Shown here in pieces: positions 3,130 through 37,986 of a DNA stretch of 64,000 nt. The translations under genes and the position numbers were made by a program. The stretch is from assembly GCF_035594765.1 (NCBI RefSeq), contig NC_085842.1:103330782-103394781 (forward strand), in the 5' to 3' direction. Numbering within the stretch: position 1 is the stretch's first letter; the number at the start of each line of letters is the position of its first letter. This DNA is from Anolis carolinensis (lineage: Eukaryota). The notes beneath the pieces were generated by a model. The model was not told the origin of the DNA. It made no database searches and saw only the letters and a program-made list of their open reading frames with translations.

Positions 3130-3718
3130 GTTCCTGGTCTCAAAGCGTACTTGTCTTTTATGTGACTCTGTGTGGTAGGACCTGGATGTCCAAGTGTATA
3201 TCCTATTATTTTCATAGTCTGTCTTGTCCCTGTTAAATTTTTTTCAACTTGAAATCCTTAACTTGTGAGTACAGTTCCTTACATTTCCGTTCAATCTCTC
3301 CAAGATGGGTTTGGAGAGACTGCTCCTTATTTATATCCTCCAGAAGGGAGGTTGCTTTCTTTTCAAATTCTTCTGTCAGCGAATTGGTTTTTTGAATGAT
3401 TAATACCATTAAGTCCAGGGAACATTTGTTAAGAATAGCAGCCCAATTTTTCAAAAAAGTGTCATCATCCAGGAACATTCCTGGGGGTTTGTGCAATCTC
3501 AGTCCTCTTGGAATCATGTTGTTTTTAATGTAATCCGATAAAGTGGAAGCATGTAAATCAAGTCTTATAAGTTTCTTTTTGGTTTTCTCACATTCCAATA
3601 ACATATCCTGGGTCTGTGGGGACTGGACTTGGGTATCAGAGTCTAGTATAGATCTATCTTTGGTTAATTTAGTGATAAGTGTTGTTTCAAAGCTTAAAGT
3701 ACCCAGCCAGTCAGCCAT
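3130..3718 (-). pseudogene. N-terminal part of the Penelope-like ORF on the inverted arm, frameshifted
   Basis: ORF 3233-3718 has LSDYIKNNMIPRGLRL...W..ILNKCSLDLM, typical of vertebrate PLE N-termini. Removing one A from the A7 run near 3240 continues it as KKFNRDKTDYENNRIYTWTSRSYHTESHKRQVRF. Confidence 0.8.
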
Positions 3719-3763
3719 ACTGGTATGTCAAGTAAAACTAATATAACACAGAAACCTATATAT

Positions 3764-4195
3764 AGTGTAGAGAAAGGTTGTCCTGTTACACACAGTATAT
3801 AATAGAAACGAAGTAGCAAACGTATAATCACCAAGGCACATATATAAACTATTTTACAGCATTATATAAACTATTTCACAGCATTATAGCAAACATAGCA
3901 TTCATGTTTATATATTGCCAAAATAAAGGAGTTCATGAACTGAGGTTAAAACTCAGTATTCAGTGTTGTCTTGAAGCTTGGTAGAAAAAGCATCTCAATT
4001 GATGATCTTTATAAATGAGGGTTGTACCCTTTAAACAAATTATCAAAGTCCCAAGCAAGAAAGAGTCTTCAGAATGTACATTCAAAGAAAGCAACAGCAA
4101 AAAACAACAAGGGTTCCCGGGGTATTCTATGTCCTTGTTTCAGGATGGGTGTCCCTTCTTCAGGTTTAGTTGCTTCTTGTATAGTCTTCTGAAGA
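3764..4195 (-). repeat. Inverted pseudo-LTR copy (432 bp), pairs with 6727-7158
   Basis: Reverse complement of 6727-7158. Both ends sum to 10922, so no net indel. I saw one substitution, near 4186. Confidence 0.95.
4085..4178 (-). ncRNA. Type I hammerhead ribozyme motif (inverted pseudo-LTR copy)
   Basis: Reverse complement of the motif at 6744-6837. Confidence 0.75.
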
Positions 4196-4295
4196 CCTTA
4201 CCTCGTAGGTCTACAACCTTACCTCGTAGGTCTAACAGGACAAGAACCCGACAACAGTCGCACCATTTTTACAGAGGCCAGCACAAACAATATCC

Positions 4296-6492
4296 AACTT
4301 AGTAGTCAACCTGTCTGGCTATCCTTTATCCCCACAAGAAATTAAGATAATCAATAAAGGACTAAGCTTTGTCCCCACGCCTAAATTCAATTTATTTCAT
4401 ACCAAAGTAGAACTCTTTCATTTGTTTAGAACAATTAGACTTAGAGAATATTTTGGACCCAAGGGTAACACAGAATATACCACTCAATTTAAACCCAAAA
4501 GTAAATTCTTTCCCCATACAGACAATATAATGATTAGATCTTTTGAAAAGGTGGTAGAAAGAGATTTAGACATACTCTCCCGCACAAAAACCCATACACA
4601 TGTCAATATGACTTCAACAGAAATAAACACCATTAAAAGATTGGCTAACATGCCGGATTATATATGGAAACAAGCCGATAAGGGAGGTGCAATTGTGCTA
4701 TTAAACAGAAAAGACTATATAAATGAGGCAATGAGACACCTAGAAGATCAAGCTTTCTACAAACCTCTAAGTAAGGATCCTACAAATAAAATACGTAATT
4801 TAATTCGCATAGTCTGCACAGAAGGACTTTCCATGGGTTATATTTCAGAAAAGCAGTATGATTTTTTACAGAAACAAAATCCTAGGATCCCAGTCTTTTA
4901 TATTCTTCCAAAAATTCACAAAGGGGCTTTTCCTCCTCCAGGAAGACCAATAGTATCAGGTACATCCTCCATACTGGAACCCCTAGCACAATTTTTGGAC
5001 CATCATTTACAACCATTTGTCCCCCTCTCGCCATCATATATTAAAGATACCAAGCATTTCATCAATATCATAGAAACATTATCAATACCTCCACAAGCTG
5101 TACTTATGACATCTGACATCACCTCACTTTATACCAACATACCACTGGATGAAGCCAGAACAGTACTAAAAGAATTATTAGACACACGTGAATCCTCAAT
5201 ACCACCGACCCAATTTCTAATTGATCTTTTGGATATAGTTTTGGATTATAATTATTTTAGATTTGGTTCTCAGTTCTACTTACAAACATTTGGCGTCGCA
5301 ATGGGGAGCGCGTTAGCCCCCTCCCTGGCAAATCTCTATATCACTAATTTGGAACAAATGTGGATCTTGAATAGTACTAAGAACGAATTACTACATGATA
5401 TAATATATTATGGGAGATTCATAGACGACATTTTTTTAGTTTGTAATACAGAGGATACAGCCAGACAACTTAGCACTTGGCTAAATACTATACACAATAA
5501 CATAAAATTTACCAGTACCCACAGCCATATCAGTGTCAATTTTTTGGACGTCACAGTTTACAAAAAGGATAATAAACTGTTGGTCAAGAACTATAGAAAG
5601 CCTACAGACAAAAACTCTATTATGCATTACTCCAGCTTCCACCACCACAAGTTAAAAACCAACTTACCTTTTGCACAATTAATGAGATTAAAACACAACA
5701 CCAGTACACCTGAGGATTTCGTAGCAGAGGTATCTCTCTTCAGAGACCAATTTAACGAGAGAGGTTATCCTACAGGAATTCTAAACACTGCCATTAGGAA
5801 AGTAGAAACCATAGATAGAAGAAATTTACTGAAAGACCAAGTAAAGAAACACAATGACCGTATCATCTGGCCCTTAACTTTGACTCAGTTCACTCCAAAA
5901 ATTCACAAAATACTTAAGAAACATTGGCATCTTATTAGAGATATCCCTGGTTGCAAATACTTACCTATGATAGCTAATAAACGCTCAAGAAATCTTAAGG
6001 ATATGCTAATAAGCTCTGATTTAACAACATCTACTATCAAGAAATCTAACCTTAGAGGCCACTCAAACTGTGGACATTGTCAATGTTGCACACAGTCTCT
6101 CAGAACTAAACATTTTTTTACATCCAACTCTAAAAATCCAAATACTACGAAGTTTTACTACACGTATCACTGACCAGGTCATTTATGTTATACAGTGTCC
6201 CTGTGGACTTCTATATGTAGGCATGACCTCCAGATCATTAAAGATTAGAATACTTGAACACCGCTCACGCATCAAAAATAAATCATCAGAGTCTACCCTC
6301 TACTCTCATTTTTTAGAGAAATCCCACTCATATACCAGCTTTACTTTTTGTGCCTTAGAAAAGATCACCATAAAACCTCATGGTGATGTTAAAAGGGTTC
6401 TACTCCAGAGAGAAGCTTTCTGGATTTCCAAATTACAAACTATGCATCCACATGGTCTGAATGATAAATTAGATCTCTCTTGTTACCTGTGA
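4296..6492 (+). pseudogene. Penelope-like reverse transcriptase + GIY-YIG endonuclease, frameshifted near 6115
   Basis: Frame begins upstream of the listed ORF (NLVVNLSGYPLS...INKGLSFVPTP). RT motifs ADKGGAIV, PPGRPIVS, DITSLYTNIP, GVAMGSALAP, YGRFIDDIF. CGHCQCC linker typical of Neptune. After a T-run frameshift: VIYVIQCPCGLLYVGMT...R..EH...REAFWI..L.T..P.GLN. Confidence 0.93.
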
Positions 6493-6726
6493 ATTAGCTT
6501 TGCAATTAGCTCACAATCCTTAAAAGGGAGTAGCCCATATCAGTCAATTTGCTCGCTCTTGGAAAAAGAAAAAGTTGCTATCCTGAGCTGGAATTACAGC
6601 AGAGCCACTACCTAGAAAAGTGAAAGTAAGTTTTTTTGCAAATATCCTTAAATTTTGTTTCATGCTACTGGGTGCTGGTAACAGCAAATCTATTATATTG
6701 TCTCCTTATAATACAGTTTGTAAAAA

Positions 6727-7158
6727 TCTTCAGAATACTATACAAGAAGCAACTAAACCTGAAGAAGGGACACCCATCCTGAAACAAGGACATAGAATAC
6801 CCCGGGAACCCTTGTTGTTTTTTGCTGTTGCTTTCTTTGAATGTACATTCTGAAGACTCTTTCTTGCTTGGGACTTTGATAATTTGTTTAAAGGGTACAA
6901 CCCTCATTTATAAAGATCATCAATTGAGATGCTTTTTCTACCAAGCTTCAAGACAACACTGAATACTGAGTTTTAACCTCAGTTCATGAACTCCTTTATT
7001 TTGGCAATATATAAACATGAATGCTATGTTTGCTATAATGCTGTGAAATAGTTTATATAATGCTGTAAAATAGTTTATATATGTGCCTTGGTGATTATAC
7101 GTTTGCTACTTCGTTTCTATTATATACTGTGTGTAACAGGACAACCTTTCTCTACACT
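6727..7158 (+). repeat. 3' pseudo-LTR segment duplicated in inverted orientation at 3764-4195
   Basis: Direct sequence comparison; contains the hammerhead and a 22-bp tandem duplication (~7037-7080). Confidence 0.95.
6744..6837 (+). ncRNA. Type I hammerhead ribozyme motif
   Basis: Stem I AAAC(6755-58)/GTTT(6817-20), extendable by AAGAAGCAAC/GTTGC(T)TTCTT. CTGAAGA 6759-65. Stem II AGGG/TCCT. GAAA 6781-84. Stem III CAAGG/CCTTG. GUU triplet, predicted cut after 6816. PLE pseudo-LTRs are known to carry hammerheads. Confidence 0.78.
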
Positions 7159-7869
7159 GTTTTAAAGTATTCCAGACAGATTAAACAGCAACTACAAAGA
7201 GGAACTTATGCTTTGTGGCATAAATAACATATCACAGGTAGAATGGCAAGGAGGAGATCAGGACTCTATCTAAAGTTAGTCAGTGAGCCGAGTGCTTCAG
7301 GTAGCAAAAATGGAGTGTCATGGAAATGTAGTGCCTGAAAGAGAAGTGTAGGAGTGTGATCCTCAGAGCTTCTGGGACTTGTGGAATTATCTTTGTTGGG
7401 ACTCATCTATAATTTATCTACACAAAAATCCAGGGCCGATCTGGAGCACAAATGGTGGAGCTGTTCAAATGGTCCACCCCCAGCCAGCAGCATCTTCAGG
7501 AGCAGAGTCCAGATGGTCCAAAAACGGTTCAGCTCTGCTGTCACCCTTATCTGTCCTGTTGTTTCTATCAATGCAGTGGCTGCCTGCAGAGTTCAAGAGA
7601 GTTTCCAGTCACTTCCAGGTGCCTTTGCTGACATCAGCAAAAAAGGAGGAGGGGGACAAACTCCTTGGTTGCAAGGCTGCCATTGTTTGTGTCAGCAAAG
7701 GCACCCAGCAACAGCCAAGAGCTATCCAATTTTACTTCCACAGTGATGGGAACAACAGGACAAATAAGAGTGACAGTCCATTGGGCCAACGGAATTGTTT
7801 GAACTCCACTCCCACAGCTTCCGCAAGTGAGGAGTGGTGCACATAAACATGTTCATAATCTCTGAAGCA

Positions 7870-8130
7870 GCCCCCAGATGGCGTAGTGGACTAAGTGACT
7901 TGAAGGTTGGGTTGCTGACCTGAAAGCTGCCAGGTTCGAATCCCACCTGGGGAGAGTGTGGATGAGCTCCCTCTATCAGCTCCAGCTCCATGCGGGGACA
8001 TGAGAGAAGCCTCCCACAAGGATGGTAAAAACATCAAAACATCCGGGCATCCCCTGGGCAACGTCCTTGCAGACGGCCAATTCTCTCACTCCAGAAGCAA
8101 CTCCGGTTGCTCCTGACATGGAAAAAAAAA
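7870..8130 (+). mobile_element. tRNA-headed, Vingi-derived SINE (AnolisSINE2-like), full length
   Basis: A box TGGCGTAGTGG, B box GGTTCGAATCC, polyA tail, flanking direct repeat ATCTCTGAAGCA (7858-69 / 8131-42). Body resembles the Vingi 5' end and the tail resembles the Vingi 3' end (TGACA.G.AAA). Confidence 0.88.
7993..8088 (+). ncRNA. HDV-like ribozyme fold inside the SINE (probably inactive)
   Basis: P1 (C)GGGGAC/ATCCCCT; P2 TGAGAGAA/TTCTCTCA; P3 GCC/GGC; L3 TCC.. pairing with GG; P4 CGTC/GACG; GGCCAA with putative catalytic C8077. Confidence 0.7.
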
Positions 8131-8145
8131 ATCTCTGAAGCATAG

Positions 8146-9056: not shown

Positions 9057-9363
9057 CAGTAGAGTCTCGCTTATCCAAGCTTCTGGATTATCCTAGCCAT
9101 TTTGTAGTCAATTTTTTCAATATATCGTGATATTTTGGTGCTAAATTCGTAAATACAGTAATTACTATGTAGCATTACTGCATATTGAACTACTTTTTCT
9201 GTCAAATTTGTTGTATAACGTGATGTTTTGGTGCTTAATTTGTAAAATAATAACCTAATTTGATGTTTAATAGGCTTTTTCTTAATCCCTTCTTATTATC
9301 CAAAATATTCGCTTATCCAAGCTTCTGCCGGCCCATTTATGTTGGATAAGTGAGACTCTACTG
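9057..9363. mobile_element. Tc1/mariner-type MITE (TIR CAGTAGAGTCTCRCTTATCCAA)
   Basis: Terminal inverted repeats; TA on the right, TG on the left; four complete copies in the window. Confidence 0.88.
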
Positions 9364-10353
9364 TATAAGAATACAGCAAGATGTCTCTAAGACTCATAGG
9401 TAATTAATACATTATGATAATTGGTCTTAGCTGTGTTTTATTCTGATAGAAATAAGCAAGGAAAATGGTACAAATATTTCACATATACTAGGCTTAAGTC
9501 ATAAATATTATTGCAAGGCCATGAGCATGGTCAATACTAAGCATTTATGTGAGTTGAAATTCATCTGGAGAGTCTAAGGGCATATCTACACAGTTACCAT
9601 ATTGCCAAAGTCAGGGAATGCTCTGGAGCTTCCCTGTATTTTGGGGTCATGTAGACAATTGGACTGGTTCTGAGCTTCACCAGGGACAGGGGGTTGACAC
9701 CTATCTTGGTGGTCCTGTTGCTGTTGTCATCTGAACATCATTGAGTGCCATTGCTGATGTCTTTAATAGTGCTTGTGCATGAGCATCCTTAGAAATCTCC
9801 TCCCATGGGTGCCATTGCTGGGATGGAGGTGGGCAGTAAAGCTACTCCTGGGGCTGGTGCACCAGATTGGGGCGTTCCTGCCTGTGTAGGTGCACCCTTA
9901 GGTTATCCTGTTTAACTCAGTGCCTGGCTAATTGCAATTTGAGTGTTCTATGCCTTTCTCCAGAAAGCACTGCATGGAACAAGTGTATTGAATTAGACAC
10001 TCTGAGTCCCTCTGTGAGGGAGAAAGTGTGGGATATAAAACTAAGTAAATAAAATAAATAAATACTGAATACAAATTTAAAAATACATAATCAATTAGGC
10101 ATGGGTGCTGCTTAAGGTCATCTGCCTTTCTGCTTGTCCCCCTCTGGGTCTGCTTTCTTTCATTTATCTTCATTTGCATTCCTGGGCTTCTACCATATTC
10201 ATTTCCATGAACAAAGTTCTTGTTTGAGATTCAAGTTTGCTACTGACTGTCTTCCAAACTCTTCTGGATTTTCTGCTGTGTTTCCTCTATCTCTAATAAT
10301 AAAAACCACAGCTTAGGATATAACTATGTAGATACATGCAATACACACATACC

Positions 10354-17849: not shown

Positions 17850-18170
17850 CAGTAGTCTCACTTATCCAAGCCTCGCTTATCCAAGCCTCTGGATTATCCA
17901 AGCCATTTTTGTTGTCAATGTTTTCAATATATCATGATATTTTGGTGCTACATTCGTAAATACAGTAATTACAACATAACATTACTGCGTATTGAACTAC
18001 TTTTTCTGTCAAATTTGTTGTATAACGTGATGTTTTGGTGCTTAATTTGTAAAATCATAACCCAATTTGATGTTTAATAGGCTTTTCCTTAATCCCTCCT
18101 TATTATCCAAGATATTCGCTTATCCAAGCTTCTGCCGGCCCGTTTTGCTTGGATAAGTGAGACTCTACTG
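17850..18170. mobile_element. Tc1/mariner-type MITE
   Basis: Same family as 9057-9363; TA on both sides. Confidence 0.88.
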
Positions 18171-18250
18171 TACTTCACTTATATACAAATCTCAACAGAG
18201 TGTTTGTGTGAACTTACTGAAAAAAATGAACATTCCTATTTATACTGCAT

Positions 18251-21861: not shown

Positions 21862-23804
21862 GCTAGATCCCTAACTTATAGATGTTTATCTCACTAAGAA
21901 TCTTTGGAAAATGACCAAAAAGGAAAGCAGAACGCTGTTCCTAATTGCACTTGCAGACTTGTATGTGAAATTTTAAGACAGACCCATGTTACTTTGTTCC
22001 AGGATAAAAAGGAAAAGGCATTCCTGTGGCATCTTTAGATGCATCTGCAGAAGTGTTCTGCAATCCACAGAAGCTTATGCTGAAATAAATTGCTGGATCT
22101 CAATTTACCTTTTTATATACCAATTGTGCTTCCAGTCTGGTGTGTTATGGAAATATTTCGATCCTACACATTTATAATCTTTTGACTACTTCTAAATTAT
22201 CATAAGCTTCCCAAGAGACATTGCTATTATGAAAATAGTGTAGTATAAAAATATAGATCATTTAAAGATATTTAGCTACTATAATATAGTACAGTATTGA
22301 TGACCAGGACCCTCCATGACAATTATGCAATTTTACATCTTTTTTAGGCCTATGACAATGTAAATATGTTTTTTAGGTTTTCAAAGGAATTGGCCAGTGG
22401 AAAAAAGGTGTGATTTACGTAGGTTCTGGAACCTAACTCTGCCATATTAGCAAGGCATGCCTATATCATTCAATCCAATGCATTTGCTAGATAAGACACT
22501 CTATTCCCATATTAGCATAATATAAAGACAGTAAAGATGGAGCTCAATACATTTTATCTCCTAAAGGTGAACTTCTTTAATAGAATTTGGGGAAATTCTT
22601 TAATAGATTGCCTGTAACGTCTTGTCATAAGAACAGATCCTGATATTTTCATTTATGTTTGAAATATACTTAGGGCTCCAAAAAGGATGCAGGTATGTTA
22701 GACTCAGTTTATAACCATATATATGTAAAGGACTTTGCCTAAATTTAAGATTTCATACCTTCTGTCTGAATTTGACTATAACAGCTCTCATGAAACCTCT
22801 GCCATCCCTCCTTGCTTTTAAAATATCCTGGTTTCTCTCTCTGCCTTTGCTTCCTACTTCCCTCCTTTCTCCCCAACTTACTTACAATTGCTGCAAATTG
22901 AGCTCAAAGTGCAGAAAGAAGCAATATAATATAATTCTTATATGGCTCTAGGTCTTATGATGTTGTTGAGGAACTTTAGAAGGAAGGAAATGTAGCATTT
23001 TCTGTGTGATGTTAATATTAGAAGGGACTGAAATTCCATCAAGTTCAATGCTGGCAATGAATAGTAAGTATAAAGAATTCATATAACTAGAAAAACTGAA
23101 TACACCATGATTGGATAATGGACAGTTGGACACCTCTTAGGGTCTCATCTCACAAGGGGGGAGGAAGCAGGTGAAATTGCTTTCTTTGCATGACGTTCCA
23201 TGGTGTTCTGTTTTTAAAGAAGACAGATAATTTACGCACCCTCATCACACAGGATCACCTCCTTCCCATTTCAAGGATACCACCACATTTTTTTGAATGC
23301 CCCCTTTATGTCCCTACACTAAAGGAGACAGGCATCTTTTTTGAAGCACGTCTTTTCATAGGATCTTCCCTTTTAAGCGCCTACTCTCAAAGAGACAAGC
23401 ACACTTTTAAAAACACTTATTTCAATAGAAAACCATCTTTAAATCACTAATGGAAACAGAAGGAGTATTAGTAGACCACCCACAAAAATAACTACACTGA
23501 AAAAATCGCAAAGTAATCAGACAAATCCTCCACTTTCATTCCAAGGAAAATACCAGTTTTTAAGTACAGTAGAGTCTCACTTATCCAACACTCGCTTATC
23601 CAACGTTCTGGATTATCCAACACATTTTTGTAGTCAATGTTTTCAATACATCCTGATATTTTGGTGCTAAATTCGTAAATACAGTAATTACTACATAGCA
23701 TTACTGCATACTGAACTACCTTTTCTGTCAAATTTGTTGTATAACATGATGTTTTGGTGCTTAATTTGTAAAATTATAACCTAATTTGATTTCTTTATTT
23801 CGTG

Positions 23805-26800
23805 TCAAAAGCATTGCATAACAAATACATTTAAAGATGATGAAAAAAAAATAGAGGAAATCACAAACAACCAAATAGTTTTAGACCAGAAACGGGCAAC
23901 AGCAACCGCATTGTCCGTAGCTTTAAACAACTCCTCCTCCATGCATGAGGCAGGACATTGTGGGCAAGCATACATATGCGGAGTTGTTTGTTCTGCTCCA
24001 CAGTCACACAAGGTGGAGGATTCCTCCAGGTAGTGCCACGTCACCAAGTTGTCTTTAGATCTGCCCACTCCACTTCTGAGTCTGTTCAGGGACTTCCAAG
24101 TTGCCCATTCTTGGTTTGCCCCTGGGGGAAGACCCTCATGGGGGGCCATCCAGTTAGAATTGCCAGGTTTAGCTGCCCAGAGGGACACCCATGCTGTTGC
24201 TGGAGGAACATCAAGAGGAGTGGTGGTTCTCATGAAGCCCTTCCTTGATTTGAGTCTGGTGGGAGGAGGCTGATAGTCATGCAGTGGGTGGCTTTCACAA
24301 TGTTCAACCTTATTTCTCTCACAGTTAGCAGCAACTTCCCATCGCACGTCAGAAGGGGCAATGCCAGCTAACTTGTAGAGTTTATCAACAGGTGTAGGTT
24401 TAAGGCATCCTGTGATTATTCTGCATGTTTCGTTTAGTGCTATGTCCACTTGCTTTGCATGGGCAGACTTTTGCCAGACAGGACAGGCGTACTCAGCAGT
24501 TGAGAAAGACAAGGCCAGGGCTGATGTTCTTATTACTTGTGGGTCTGCACCCCATGCGCTGCCAGTCACTTTCCGCAGGATGTTGTAGCGTGCAGCTACT
24601 TTGTGCTTGGTGTTCGTGCAGTGTTTCCTATATGTTAGTGTTCGATCTAAGGTGACACCAAGATATTTAGGATGGAAACAGTGTTCGAGCTCTTGGCCTT
24701 CCCAAGTAATTTTCAGTTTCCTGTTGGCTTCACGGTTACGTAGGTGGAAAGCACACACTTGTGTCTTGGCAGGGTTGGGCTTCAGGTCGTTCTCTTTGTA
24801 GTAGCTGGAGAGGTCTTTCAAGGCATTAGTGAGTTGGTTTTCAACTGTTTCAAAATCTTTTGCTTGTGTTGTGAGGCCAAGGTCATCAGCATATATAAAG
24901 CTCTTTGTGAGTGGTGGTAGTGGCTGATCGTTCGTGAAGATGTTAAATAAGGTCGGTGCAAGAACGCTGCCTTGGGGTAAACCATTCTTTTGCCTCCTCC
25001 ATCTGCTTTTCCGGCCCTGAAACTCCACATAGAAGCTGCGGTTTTCCAGGAGGGTCTGGACAGTTTTTGTAAAGTCAAAGTCCCAGGTGATATGGTAGAC
25101 TTTATGCAGCATTTTTCTATGTTGCACCGTGTCATAGGCTGCCGTAAGGTCCACAAAAACTGTTCCCGTAATGCAGCCTTTCTCATAGCCTTCCTCGATA
25201 TGCTCAGTCAGATGAAGAATTTGACCTGTACAGTTTTTCCCTGGTCTGAAAACAGCTTGTTGTGCAATAAGCTTGGGTTCGATAACAGGTCCTAGTCGAT
25301 TTAATAGCATCCTCTCATAGACTTTATATAGATGACATAAGAGGGAGATTGGTCGGTAGTTCCTGGCATTGGAGGCATCTTTACCAGGTTTTAAAATGGC
25401 AATGATCTTAGTTTTCCTCCGTGCTCTGGGAATCTGTTTGTGTGCCAAGCATTGATTATAGAATTTCAAAAGCCAGTTTTCAGCTTTGGGGCCCAAGTGT
25501 TTGATTTGCTCCATCATCATCTAGGCCAGGTGCTTTACCAGTCTTACATCGCTTGATGGCTTCTCTGAGTTCTTTCAGGTTTAGAGGAGAAAACAACTGG
25601 TGGGTTTCAAGTTCTGGCACCCTGTTGATTTTCATCTTTACTCTGCTGCAGTTAGTTTTCCCATTCTGAATTAGCTGGTGAGCCATCTGGTCTGGTGTCA
25701 CGTTTGCGTGTCCATGGTTGACCAAAGGGTCACTATCCAGGCGTCTCAGCAGTTGCCAGGCTTTTCGGCTACTCTTGGACATGTCAAGGTTCTCAAGCAG
25801 CTCTATCCAACGGTCTTTCTTAGCATTAGCTAAGGCTGTAGATAGTTTTTGGCCTGCTTCTATAGTCCCATCACTGTATGGATTCTCTTGAAATAGTCTG
25901 AGATATTCCTGTAGCTGATTTAGCGATTTTTCGTTTAGGCCTGGTAGGTAGCTTGTGCGGCAGCCTCTAGGGATTGAGAGCCTTGAGGATCTTTTCACAG
26001 CTTCTACAAACAAGTCATAATTTTCTGTAGAAGGTTCTATATCAGAAATAGCAGCTTCCAAAGTCTCTGTAAACTTTGTCCAGTTAGCTTTATTGAAGTT
26101 ATATCTTCTGCGGAATGGGACACTTTTTGGTCTTACAGCTGCATATGCTACGCAGCATATTGGTCTGTGTTGTGTGTTCGGTATCGGGTTTAATACCCTT
26201 TTGATGCATTGGTGGATTATGCTTTCCTTTACAAAAATCAGATCAGGGTTATAACCACGCTTCCATCGGCCGCTATTAAAAGATGGTGGTAATTTACTGT
26301 CATGGAGGAGGCTCATTCTACTGTTGTCGGCCCACGTTAGAACTGCTTCGCCATTTCTATCATCTTCGTCATAGCCCCAGACACAGCTATGGCTATTGAA
26401 ATCTCCCACAACAAAATGGGCTTCATGATTGTGGCAACTGGTTGGGGGTGTAAAATAGAAATCAGCCCCAGGTGGTTTATAGAGTGATGATACGGTGCAA
26501 CTATCAAGTTCCACAGATAAGATTTCAATATTGTTCTCTTCTGTGAGGGAAGTTGCAGAGATTGCTACACCAGATCGTACAAAAATGGCACTGCCATATT
26601 GCCTGTGAGGTCGTTCCACTGCCAGTTGCATTCCAAGAATTTTTGGTCTTCGCATTGTGATGTCTCTGTGTGTTTCCTGTATACATAGGATGTCACATGA
26701 AATGTCCTCAGACATTTTGGCTAATAGTTCTTCCTTAGCAAGTGACAAACCTTCTATATTAATAGACATAATCGTTAGCAATGGTCTTGATAAAGACCTT

Positions 26801-26814
26801 TGGTATTCATCCAT
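23805..26814 (-). pseudogene. Vingi APE endonuclease + reverse transcriptase, one frameshift near 25510
   Basis: SINIEG, LCIQETH, VGDFNSH, PDLIF, TQHRPI (APE). KAPGLD then frameshift. NYRPISLL, FVDLTAAYDTV, GLPQGSVLAP, YADD, KYLGVTLD. C-terminal CDCG...H...C. Confidence 0.92.
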
Positions 26815-26834
26815 TCATCCAATGCTTTTGGGGT

Positions 26835-26923
26835 GGAAAGATTGGCCACTTACAAGAAACATTGCCCAGGGGAGGCCCGACTGAATTTACTCAATCTTCG
26901 AGGAGGCTCTTTCCGTGTCCCCC
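26835..26923 (-). ncRNA. HDV-like ribozyme at the Vingi 5' terminus
   Basis: Minus strand: P1 GGGGGAC/CTCCCCT (G1.U); P2 GGAAAGA/TCTTTCC; P3 GCC/GGC; L3 TCCTCG; then GGGCAA...TGGCCAA as in HDV; putative catalytic C at 26845. Confidence 0.78.
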
Positions 26924-28105
26924 TAATTTGATGTTTAATAGGCTTTTACTTAATCTCTCCTTATTATCCAACATATTCGCTTATCCAACGTTCTGCTGTC
27001 CTGTTTACGTTGGATAAGTGAGACTCTACTGTATTTCTATGTGCAAGGAAAGGAGTGAAGTTAATTTCTACCCATCTTTAAAATTCTCCTGTTTCTACAC
27101 ACAAATATGGAGTCTCACAAGCAACCACAAGAAGCAGTTCTGCATTGTTTGATGGGCTCTGTGGGATTTCATATTGAACTGTGCAGAAACAGAAGAAAAC
27201 TTCAATATGATGAGGTCTTTAGAACCAACAAGTATTGGTAACTTCATTGGTGTATCTGAAAAAAAACATGAATTACTTTCAGAAAAAAATAACTAGCCAG
27301 CAGCTGTGGCCTGTTGTTTTCCAAACAACTGTTGAAAAAACATCTGATGGTTGTTCTGGCTCATAAGAATTTTCTAGCCATTTTGAGGTTTTTTTTTCCC
27401 CACAGATGCTACAACATAGTATAACAGGCAGCATGTCATAAAGAAAGGGCATAGAGATTTACTGAAATGGAGAATCTAAAAGTGCAAATATCAGAAGGAA
27501 GTAGAAGAAAGAAATGTAAGAGCACATGCGGGCAAGGAGAGTGAATGTGATTGAGCCAAAGCACAAGAAAGTGTACTCTGTAAATATTATGAAAACATAT
27601 AACAAGTACATTCCTCTTGATAACTGAAAGTAGCCCTTGGAAATTTTCTTAGCATTTTTTTAGACTTCTGAAAATAAGGGACAGGAAGCAGAATGCATTT
27701 TTGCTTAATATTCTAGAACTGATTTGTTAATAATCAAATTGCATGTAGACATTTGTGTTTAAACTGCAAATTTTAAAATATTGTAATATTGTGGCAGCAA
27801 GACAATATCAAGGTATCAATGCATACTTTTACTCTTTCATTGTTCATGCCTTGTCAATGTGAACAATGAAGTAAGTATCTATGTAATGTTCTTAAGGAAT
27901 GGTTTGTCCATATCTGTTTGAAGGAAAAGAGGAAAGAATGCCAATCTGTACAATCCGTATTATCAGTTAAACACTTGTCTGTTGCCAGTCTTTCTTTTAT
28001 CCTATATAAACTTATATGCTTGATTAGAGTGGCCAAAATTGGGTGTCTTATGGGACCAAAATGAAGAATGTAGCATGATTTTGGATCTAACTCACTAATT
28101 ACTTT

Positions 28106-32380: not shown

Positions 32381-33490
32381 GGGTTGTTGTATGTCTTTCG
32401 GGCTGTGTGGCCATGTTCCAGAAGTATTCTCTCCTGACATTTCACCTACATCTATGGCAAGCATCCTCAGAGGTTGTGTGGTATATTGGAAACTAAGTCA
32501 GTGAGGTTTATATATCTGTGGAAGATCCAGGGTGGGATAAAGAACCTTTGTCTGTTGGAGGCAGGTGTTGTTGTAATTAATCACCTTGATTAGCATTTGA
32601 TGGCCCTGTGGCCTCAAGGCTGGCTTCTTCCTGTCTGGGAGAATCCTTTGTTGGGAGGTGTTAGCTGTCCCTGATTGTTTCATGTCTGGAATTCCCCTGT
32701 TTTCTGAGTGTTGTTCTTTATTTACTGTTCTGATTTTAGAGTTTTTTTAAATACTGGTAGCCAGATTTTGTTCATTTTCATGGTTTCCTTCTTTCTGTTG
32801 AAATTGTCCACATTGCAGACATGAATCAATCAGGGCCAGCTAACAACTCCCAACAAAGGATTCCTCCAGGGAGGAATCAGCCAGGCCTTGAAGCGCAAGG
32901 CTTTTCAATGCTAATCAAAGTGATTAGTTGCAACATTGGCACTTGCCTCCAACAGACAAGAGTTCCTTCTCCCACCCTGGAACTTCCACAGATATATAAA
33001 TCCCACTTGCCTAGTTTCCAACAGACCTCACACTTCTGAGGATGCCTGCTATAGATGTGGGTGTTTCATATATTGCATTGCTTTAGTTTTGAATAGACCT
33101 CACAACAGTTGAGGATTTTTTGTGTGTCAGGAGTGACTTGAGAAACTGCAAATCCTTTCTGGTATGAGGGAATTAGTAGTCTGCAAGGATGTGGCACAGG
33201 GGACGCCCAGATGTTTTGATGTTTTTACCATCCGTGTGGGAGGCTTCTCTCATGTCCCCGTTTGGAGCTGGAGCTGATAAAGGGAGCTCATCCATGCTCT
33301 CCTCGGGTTGGATTCAAACAGGCAACCTTCAAGTCAGAAACCGAACCATTAGCAACCCATCAGTCCTGCCAGCACAAGGGTTTAACCCACTGCGCCAACA
33401 GGGGTCTCCCTGCCGTAGATGTGGGTGAAATGTCAGGAGAGAATGCTTCTGGAGCATGGCCATACAGCCCAGAAGACTCAGTGCAACCCA
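32381..33490. mobile_element. Head-to-head Penelope (Poseidon-like) 3' fragments with minimal hammerhead remnants
   Basis: 32381-32815 (minus) and 32816-33490 (plus) are the same family as 47231-48380. Hammerhead remnants at 32433-32473 (-), ~33033-33062 (+, partial) and one split by a SINE. Confidence 0.75.
33116..33409 (-). mobile_element. tRNA-headed Vingi-derived SINE
   Basis: Reverse complement matches 7870-8130 and 513-723; keeps GTCCCCT as the P1 3' strand. Confidence 0.82.
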
Positions 33491-35832: not shown

Positions 35833-37986
35833 CATGAGATCAATGGTGTGGGGGGTCAACTGGGCAACACCTCATCATTGATCAGATAGCTGAGCAACTT
35901 GTTCTTGCTGAAGCCAATGGCCATTTCACCTAACAGAGAAACAATTTTGCCAGTAGAGCTCTGCCAGGGAGGTGCTTGGCTGGGAAGTCAGCAGCAGCAT
36001 CCCCAAATTATTATTTTATTATTAACTTTATACCCCGCTTTTCTCCATGTGGGAACTCAAGGCAGCTAACAATCTCAAAGAGGAAGAAACCCCCAAGCAT
36101 CAAGGAAAAGAAGAACTTTCACCATTAAAACAGCTGTAAGTCATATGTTCCTACGACATCAAAACATACGCATTTTTGCTAGTATGGATGAGGCCTGGAA
36201 AGCTTCTCATTTTTAAAGGTTACAACTTAAAGTGAACAGTGAAAATATTTGTGATAAAGTTTACTGATAGACACTGAGGCACTCTGTTACAATATAAGCA
36301 TAAGGTATTGGGAAGCGTGGTTGAATCAATCTCATTCTACTTCAAAAGGGGAAATCAGGTTGGTGAATATTGTCATCATTCCCCTATTATGTTAATTTGC
36401 ATTTCATAGTATTCCCAAAGTTTTCATTTTAAAAGTGCATCACAGAGGAATTTTCCATGGATATCCCATCCCAACCCAACAGAGGTAGAGCAGCTGGTTT
36501 GAAAATGAAAAGAAAAATACAGTTATTCTGTAATACAGTAAGGAAAAGTAGAGGATTATATAAGGGTCCAAAAGTTAATGCAATTAAAATAACTTCAAGA
36601 AAATTGAGGCATCAGATTAGGATGTCTGAGTAATTAGCAACGCTTTTGGGGAATTCGTAAAATATACAGTACTTTATTTAAAAATCATATTTTTAAAAAT
36701 TCTAAAGTGTGTTTTAATCATAAATGTATTGAATGAGGAAATAAAATACAGTTCCTAAAATGATTAATTATAAACATATGCATTTATTGTGTCAATTACA
36801 AATAATATAAAGATGTTAGGCAAAGTTATCAATTGTGTAAAGCCCCTAACGTAGACAATCAGCCTTTGGTACTATCGCATAAACACCTATATTTTAATCA
36901 AGGTGAGAAACCAGAAAATGATTATAGAAAATATTAAAGAAGCTGTTATTATCAAATAAATTCTTGAATTATTTACATTTCAACTATCCAGTAGTGTTGT
37001 GCATTCATGTGGAATTGCTATTCGTTTCATTCGTGTCATCTCATTTTCATATTTGTGTCCTGCTAACAATAATAGGGTGTCTATACGACATGAATTTTCA
37101 TCTGGATAACGAAAAACATGAAAATCTTTGTGCCATTGGCTGCAATGGGAGGGCTTCCAAGGCTACCCTCCAGCTCGGTTTTTGGGCTAGAGGAGTAAAA
37201 ATCACCACACACTGGGGGCATTTCAACCACTTTTAGCCCACCAACTTTTAAAACATTTGGGTCTTCCCCAGAGTACTATTGTGATTCACAGTCTTTCCAT
37301 TCAAGTGAGGAAAAGTATCCTTCTCCAATTAATTCTTCATTTCCCCCACTGCCCAAATCTCCTCCTCCCCTTGGTGTGTAATGTAACGCCAGGCTGCTGT
37401 AGTAGCAAGGGATGGGAAAGGGGAAAAAGGAAAACCAGGGAGAGGAATAATTGTTTTTTCCCTATTGCTGCCAGTTAGAAGGCTAAGCTCCACCCACTTG
37501 ATTTCCTAGCAACCCACTCAGACCAATCTTCCACAGATTATCTAATTTGCTCTGGATTATATGGCATTGTAGACTCAAGGCCCTTCCACACAGCTATATT
37601 ACCCATTTATAATCTTATATTATCTGCTTTGAACTGAATTATCTTGAGTCCACACTGCCATATAACCCACTTCAGTGTGCATTTTATACAGCTGTGTAGA
37701 AGGAGCCTCATATCATCCAGTTCTAAGCAGATAATATAAGATTATAAATATACAGTAGAGTCTCACTTATCCAACATAAATACCCCGGCAGAACGTTGGA
37801 TAAGCGAATATGTTGGATAATAAGAAGGGATTAAGGAAAAGTCTATTTAACATCAAATTTCATTATGATTTTTCAAATTAAGCACCAAGACATCAGGTTA
37901 TACAACAAATTTGACAGAAAAAGTAGTTCAATGTGCGATAATGCTATGTAGTAATTACTGTATTTACGAATTTAATACCAAAACAT

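Follow-up and report, generated by a model that had tools for sequence, protein, structure and literature searches.

The body of a SINE in the genome of Anolis carolinensis looks like the 5' end of a Vingi-type LINE and appears to be a disarmed version of the HDV-type ribozyme fold found there. The SINE copy lies at positions 7870-8129 of a 64,000-nucleotide stretch of contig NC_085842.1, hereafter the window, and coordinates are those of the window, on the plus strand unless stated. We favour, at odds of about two in three, the reading that the body comes from the 5' end of a second family of Vingi elements, with an HDV-type fold that is likely self-cleaving at its first base, G1. Cutting has likely been lost in the SINE because +1 is C, -1 is G and, in this subfamily, G25 is missing; selection for template use has likely kept the stems. 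A tRNA head would have been joined to an internally deleted RNA of this second family, and only a non-cutting junction could have passed on the internal Pol III promoter. Once the junction was non-cutting, later decay of the active site would have been free, and the Vingi protein or the stability of the RNA may depend on what remains of the fold or sequence.

According to the sequence parse and the subfamily consensus, the copy at 7870-8129 is a full member of the young short-tail subfamily, composed of a tRNA-type head, a linker, the Vingi 5' ribozyme-derived body, a Vingi 3' tail and an A-run. It is flanked by a 13 bp target-site duplication (TSD), AATCTCTGAAGCA (5' copy 7857-7869, 3' copy 8130-8142). 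The head contains an A-box-like (7879-7889) and a B-box-like (7933-7943) Pol III motif, called from what we take to be the A/B-box consensus; ARAGORN called no tRNA for the head. The linker (7944-7992) ends in a G at position -1. The tail (8089-8129) consists of the remaining Vingi 5' UTR fused to the Vingi 3' end, with a hairpin (GCAAC 8097-8101/GTTGC 8106-8110), the motif TGACA(C/T)G and the A-run. Between SINE subfamilies this hairpin (8097-8110) becomes shorter yet stays paired, its third pair passing from G-C through G.U to A-U, which amounts to covariation inside the SINE, though confined to the tail and to CpG sites. A box-bearing head, TSD, A-tail and high copy number, together with a body and tail that match the 5' and 3' ends of a Vingi element, are the features of a tRNA-derived SINE of the SINE2-1_ACar type. 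The SINE presumably also resembles Sauria SINE/Squam1. The window holds a second, long-tail copy at 33116-33409 on the minus strand, with C at +1 (33260) and decayed P1.1 and J1.1/4, and a third at 513-723 with T at +1 (633). The third copy carries no fold because a deletion has removed the region from the 5' strand of P2 through U37.

Taken one element at a time, the SINE body (7993-8088) can be parsed in the same way as the 5' end of the LINE at 26923-23791 on the minus strand. The layout used for both folds was assumed to be the HDV order P1, P2, P3, L3, P1', P1.1, GCAA, P4, G-C75-N-R-A, P2', and the numbering and layout of genomic HDV were presumed to apply. As potential pairing, the five helices P1, P1.1, P2, P3 and P4 occur in the body in nested double-pseudoknot order. 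P1 (7994-8055; strands 7994-7999/8049-8054) has six of seven pairs in the consensus and is down to five Watson-Crick pairs in this copy, because CpG decay has changed G31 to A at 8049. P2 is formed by TGAGAGAA (8001-8008) and TTCTCTCA (8081-8088) and is identical to that of the second Vingi family. P3 (8009-8011/8046-8048) is followed by U20 (8012), and P1.1 pairs CC (8013-8014) with GG (8056-8057). L3 contains an inserted hairpin at 8020-8044 (GGATG 8020-8024/CATCC 8040-8044), J1.1/4 is GCAA (8058-8061) and P4 is CGTC (8062-8065) with GACG (8072-8075). J4/2 contains G74, the catalytic C75 (8077) and A77/A78 (8079-8080), and C75 is present in all subfamily consensuses. The sequence-only reading had described the same fold built from other paired sequences, and the P2, L3 hairpin and P4 of the SINE were indeed found in place of the Vingi GGAAAGA/TCTTTCC and GATTGA/TCAGTC.

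Two parts of the active site are lost. At the cut site, a C (7993) replaces G1 and faces U37 (8055). In L3 the U20.G25 pair with C24 is gone; the young sequence is TCCCAC, with neither C24 nor G25, and the old one is TCCCAGC, with A24. The genomic HDV ribozyme shares its helix order, GCC-UCC-CG, GG-GCAAC and G-C75-N-R-A layout with the SINE body and the Vingi fold, but both differ from it in a one-base J1/2 and a hairpin inserted after C26, and the SINE also in the lack of G1 and G25. Rfam (E<=1) gave no HDV-type match to the SINE or the Vingi 5' end in the window, where the inserted L3 hairpin may hide one; the evidence for the fold is therefore motif parsing and comparison and not a library match.

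The LINE in the window, here called Vingi-1, is a full-length, frameshifted Vingi-type element of 3.1 kb (23791-26923, minus strand) with APE and RT domains and no match to an RNase H domain. The names Vingi-1 and Vingi-2 are inferred labels, assigned by agreement of architecture with published elements and not by Repbase sequence. The 5' end (26834-26923, minus strand) has an HDV-type fold with G1, U20, C24, G25 and C75, although this copy has a G31-to-C change and CpG decay in P4. Because the TSD overlaps two of its five G, the G1 of this copy is not assignable from the window alone, but other copies settle it. Five G directly follow unrelated flanks in 25 of 30 Vingi-1 ends. Nine full-length copies with a resolved TSD, from 16 regions, start exactly at G1 in six cases and are ambiguous by a G in three, where the TSD ends in G. 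L3 in the Vingi-1 copies reads TCC(C/T)CG, with C24 and G25, and the five helices together with G1, U20, C24, G25, C75 and A78 are present in the 5' ends of both Vingi-1 and the second Vingi family. The fold at the Vingi 5' end thus appears live; the exact start at G1 fits cleavage, and precise transcription initiation would look alike. The Vingi-1 copy sits inside a 266-base repeat (23565-23790 and 26925-27040) that is also found at 9100-9365, 17907-18172 and 37749-37986.

Vingi-1 is not the donor of the SINE body. A second Vingi family, found by a search for intact L3, has the SINE's own P2, GGAT/ATCC hairpin and CGTC/GACG, but its L3 is TCCCCGC and its G1, G25 and C75 are intact. The 5' ends with SINE-type P2 adjoin, in inverted orientation, a Vingi-like RT in 14 of 35 loci (32-59% identical to the RT of Vingi-1, and 32-62% over all loci with such an RT), and an APE frame comes directly after the 5' end in 4 of 30 further loci. 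The 3' end of the family matches the old SINE tail. Among 48 copies GGGG is kept in 15, and G1 is present in 10 of these 15; copies L158, L196 and L307 begin at G1. Two head-less copies, L307 with five G and L169, combine the internal junction of the SINE with donor-type L3. By these sequence features the SINE body derives from the second Vingi family. Surviving copies of the family are mostly 5'-inverted, the inverted piece being the ribozyme plus about 40 bases (L122, L131, L133, L134, L155, L159, L162, L163, L166, L175-L179), and forward full-length copies are rare (4/30). Ribozyme-only retrocopies of about 120-140 bases were also seen, with their own TSD, a start at G1, an end just past the start codon and no element 3' end (L048, L158/L187, L196).

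The origin of the body changes the meaning of the paired differences from Vingi-1. In P2 both strands differ in four of seven pairs with none broken, and the chance that four changes face each other is 1/35. Since the second Vingi family already has the P2, L3 hairpin and P4 of the SINE, the compensatory changes predate the SINE. They separate two autonomous Vingi families, and the stems were inherited unchanged, so the earlier view that this covariation shows the SINE to have kept the fold does not hold.

The loss of the active site can be ordered across the SINE subfamilies. For the old family, 90 of 1,192 tail matches were read, six of the 90 being one SINE inside a larger repeat; position +1 was C in 41, T in 31, A in 4 and G in 1, and was unread in 13. 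The old copy in the larger repeat has an identical flank at six places (L359, L378, L386, L421, L425, L434). Eight headed copies with donor-type L3 have T (5), C (2) or A (1) at +1. G at +1 occurs in 117 of 12,500 SINE matches, and head or linker sequence is retained in 29 of the 30 that were read, mostly as G-run slips or point changes. The sequence-only reading gave this position as C, C and T in the three copies of the window, which is what was read (C 7993, C 33260, T 633), and the change is family-wide. The T at 633 stems from CpG decay of the C typical of the family and is no separate loss (68 C, 21 T and 1 A among 90). All subfamily consensuses have G at -1. In L3, the old family has A24 in 84/86 and G25 in 67/73, and in the mid and young families, including the copy at 7870-8129, L3 is TCCCAC without G25, from either a G deletion or a C loss plus G-to-A. 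C75 is retained in 82/89 old and 100/103 readable young copies. Read from these subfamilies, disarming began with the C that already stands at +1 in the oldest headed copies and the G at -1, and either C24-to-A or the loss of G25 came afterwards. Disarming through loss of G1, as earlier proposed, is thus correct in part and incomplete. At one place (L317/L318, G000:C11:30.0 Mb) the old SINE body is repeated in tandem with a period of 154 bases.

The roles of G1:U37, U20:G25 and C75 in the HDV ribozyme are published (PMC1874588, PMC13635239). Changes at G1:U37 lower activity, G at -1 is the slowest base at that position and more than 25-fold slower than U, and G25A is about 3000-fold slower (PMC1874588); no cleavage by G25A was seen within 60 s (PMC13635239). 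From these effects the young SINE is expected to have next to no activity. A return of G1 would by itself probably not bring cutting back in the young subfamily, and a C1-to-G reversion is likely to fail there because G25 is also gone. It had been suggested that many SINE copies could cut host pre-mRNAs; this is unlikely, and the present data lend no support to the idea that SINEs cut host transcripts on a large scale.

The genomic start points of head-less copies give a footprint of cutting. Candidates for starts at +1 and +2 were taken as four G behind a non-head flank, which misses +3 starts, and gave 101 matches. Of these, 70 were read and contained 12 head-less and 2 inverted copies, with a TSD-resolved start at +1 in one and at +2 in one; the 31 unread candidates resemble G-run slips. 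Head-less GGGGAC copies with their own TSDs, proposed earlier as a check, thus exist but are not in excess at +1/+2. The peak is instead at +3. A GGGAC start was counted by hand in 59 of 100 listed rows (118 matches), and 22 of 36 GGG-start rows that were read are head-less, with two duplicate pairs and with L480 and L445 scored by eye against the automatic flag. In 12 copies the border of the TSD falls exactly at +3. Scaled up, there are about 160 such starts in 16,000 copies (1.0%), about four times the neighbours; for comparison, each position from +4 to +6 has 0.27%, and the head has 0.12% for each base (13/91). Short, mid and long-tail subfamilies all contribute, and an apparent bias toward older subfamilies was rejected since it was gone after 20 more loci.

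The excess at +3 implies that some event ends the RNA or cDNA at the ribozyme boundary, which may be slow or shifted cleavage or a reverse-transcriptase pause. The fold may accordingly be damped and not dead, cutting slowly at +1 with two bases then lost, or in a slipped P1 register, with the +3 copies as its products; the retention of C75 would fit this. A plain cut at +1 does not explain the +3 starts, because copies of Vingi-1 and of the second family with TSDs start at G1 with no loss of two bases. A one-base slip predicts starts at +2, which are rare, the +3 peak is present in subfamilies without G25, and a pause or junction preference of the reverse transcriptase at the P1 boundary gives the same footprint. 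We consider residual cutting possible but doubtful. Whichever the source, about 99% of the copied SINE RNAs were not cut at this boundary.

The stems of the body are conserved between subfamilies. Across five SINE subfamily consensuses, P1, P1.1, P2 and P3 (38 nt) have no changes apart from CpG decay, and the head plus linker (130 nt) has 24 hand-counted events. From these, 7.0 changes would be expected in the stems (Poisson P 0.0009, which is overstated as head changes cluster). Both strands of P1, P3 and P1.1 are perfectly complementary in all five consensuses. P1 is deleted in 1 of 100 SINE rows, so an amplified P1-less subfamily was rejected. Stem invariance amid a changing head, linker and loops suggests selection on fold or sequence, and on this sequence evidence selection on the fold is likely. 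Covariation support across the SINE subfamilies was looked for, and no compensatory change in the ribozyme-derived stems was found; the stems are invariant instead. Two-sided pair changes in the 90 old copies were rejected as covariation, as 25 of 34 lie at two CpG pairs of P4 and are mostly CpG decay. The 5' strand of the L3 hairpin is missing in 20 of 90 old copies, and P4 has lost one pair in the young families. A 3-base insertion at the P3/P1 junction (G000:C1:231057-2330533) was present in 11 of the first 19 rows and in none of the next 81, across tail types; it was rejected as a subfamily since it is confined to one 2-Mb region, where it may reflect local conversion or an assembly artefact.

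Between subfamily consensuses the unpaired U20, GCAA, C75 and A78 are as invariant as the stems, and together with the lack of compensation within the SINE this makes structure inseparable from sequence recognition. The idea that selection kept the fold and damped the catalysis agrees with the invariant stems and the lost core letters. The body may instead be kept as a sequence tag or as another fold, made of P2 and a new 8-bp L3/P4 helix in the young families, with a pseudoknot that no longer forms. In nested folding of the young families (ViennaRNA, pseudoknots unscored), a non-HDV rod comes out 2.6-3.6 kcal/mol more stable than either pseudoknot half. This rod has the lowest predicted energy for the mid and young consensuses and for the copy at 7870-8129, and when only nested folds are considered, the probability of P1 in full-length RNA of the young SINE is 0.0. 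Two lineage changes, T-to-C in P4 and an added A in L3, build the 8-bp helix, and in young SINE RNA the rod would show as a helix of CAAGGAUG with CGUCCUUG. This alternative fits the absence of covariation within the SINE but leaves the full complementarity of the P1, P3 and P1.1 strands in five consensuses to be explained, and only two changes support the rod in an energy model that ignores pseudoknots. We rate it as unlikely, a little below residual cutting. It is improbable that the body is a neutral passenger, a relic of an internally deleted Vingi ancestor unchanged by chance: genomic copies decay equally in stems (7.0%), loops (6.3%) and linker (7.1%) and few master lineages were sampled, all in one genome, but neutral decay of copies is expected anyway, the masters have no stem changes against about seven expected, and no lineage without P1 has amplified.

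That Vingi-derived SINE bodies are known, as the sequence-only reading stated, agrees with the published link of SINE2-1_ACar/SINE2-1B_ACar to their partner Vingi-2_ACar (PMC5786205, PMC4494074, PMC3747384). SINE2-1_ACar, from the anole lizard, has like the present SINE a tRNA head and Vingi 5' and 3' parts; Sauria SINE/Squam1 is listed in a separate row (PMC3747384). The SINE/Vingi link is thus published, as is the conflict over loss of the head, since a 5' ribozyme would truncate the SINE head (PMC5786205, section 23). In the available parts of these papers the Vingi 5' end is not folded, the six ribozyme-bearing clades do not include Vingi and disarming by point changes does not appear; the match made here is by architecture, not by Repbase sequence. 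A search of the literature on Sauria SINE, Vingi and ribozymes, with patents and some earlier ribozyme and Vingi papers outside its scope, found no report of a Vingi ribozyme or of a disarmed one in a SINE.

Other non-LTR elements also carry an HDV-like ribozyme at position +1 and have internally deleted derivatives that share it, namely L1Tc/NARTc with L1TcRz and ingi/RIME (PMC3185411) and R2 with its SIDEs (PMC3414825); Ingi is the sister clade of Vingi. The L1Tc, ingi and R2 derivatives are head-less and their ribozymes cut, whereas the present SINE has a Pol III head upstream and has lost core letters. In R2 templates, the HDV fold and its C aid the template apart from cutting, and deletion of P2 or a change of the catalytic C is strongly inhibitory (PMC11331408, section 6). 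The requirement for P2 and the catalytic C in R2 5' modules is, by analogy only, in line with the retention of P2 and C75 in the SINE; the R2 fold stands at the RNA 5' end in an engineered system, and the SINE fold is internal, behind the head. In alligator, SINE2-1_AMi with Vingi-2_Gav (PMC5786205, supplement) is a separate SINE with a tRNA head and a Vingi 5' end. Its consensus, read by eye, can be parsed as an HDV fold that keeps P2, P3, the P4 hairpin and C75, whereas +1 is C, P1 is weakened and a C replaces U20. SINE2-1_AMi is known there from its consensus only and base 1 of Vingi-2_Gav is not displayed; it is a lead to a second disarmed case, not a computed result. A wider view is that Vingi-dependent SINEs arise only by domesticating the LINE ribozyme: cutting would be switched off at the head junction, the C75-bearing pseudoknot would stay on as a module that the template requires, lizards and crocodilians would each have taken this route independently, and the +3 copies would record leftover shifted cutting; we regard this as speculative.

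One anole Vingi element has been used in gene-writing templates (PMC13708176), and the present results suggest that the 5' UTR of such anole elements contains an HDV-type ribozyme. The SINE subfamilies would form a natural, dated series within one genome, leading from a complete ribozyme to a fold that does not cut, in which the structural role of the fold can be separated from its chemistry. For Vingi, the series would answer the published puzzle of a SINE carrying a LINE 5' end that would remove its own promoter. Elsewhere in the window, at 3233-7158, identical 432-base inverted repeats (3764-4195, 6727-7158) enclose a long RT-like frame (4236-6173) and, after it, a short one, an arrangement that we take to resemble a Penelope-type element.
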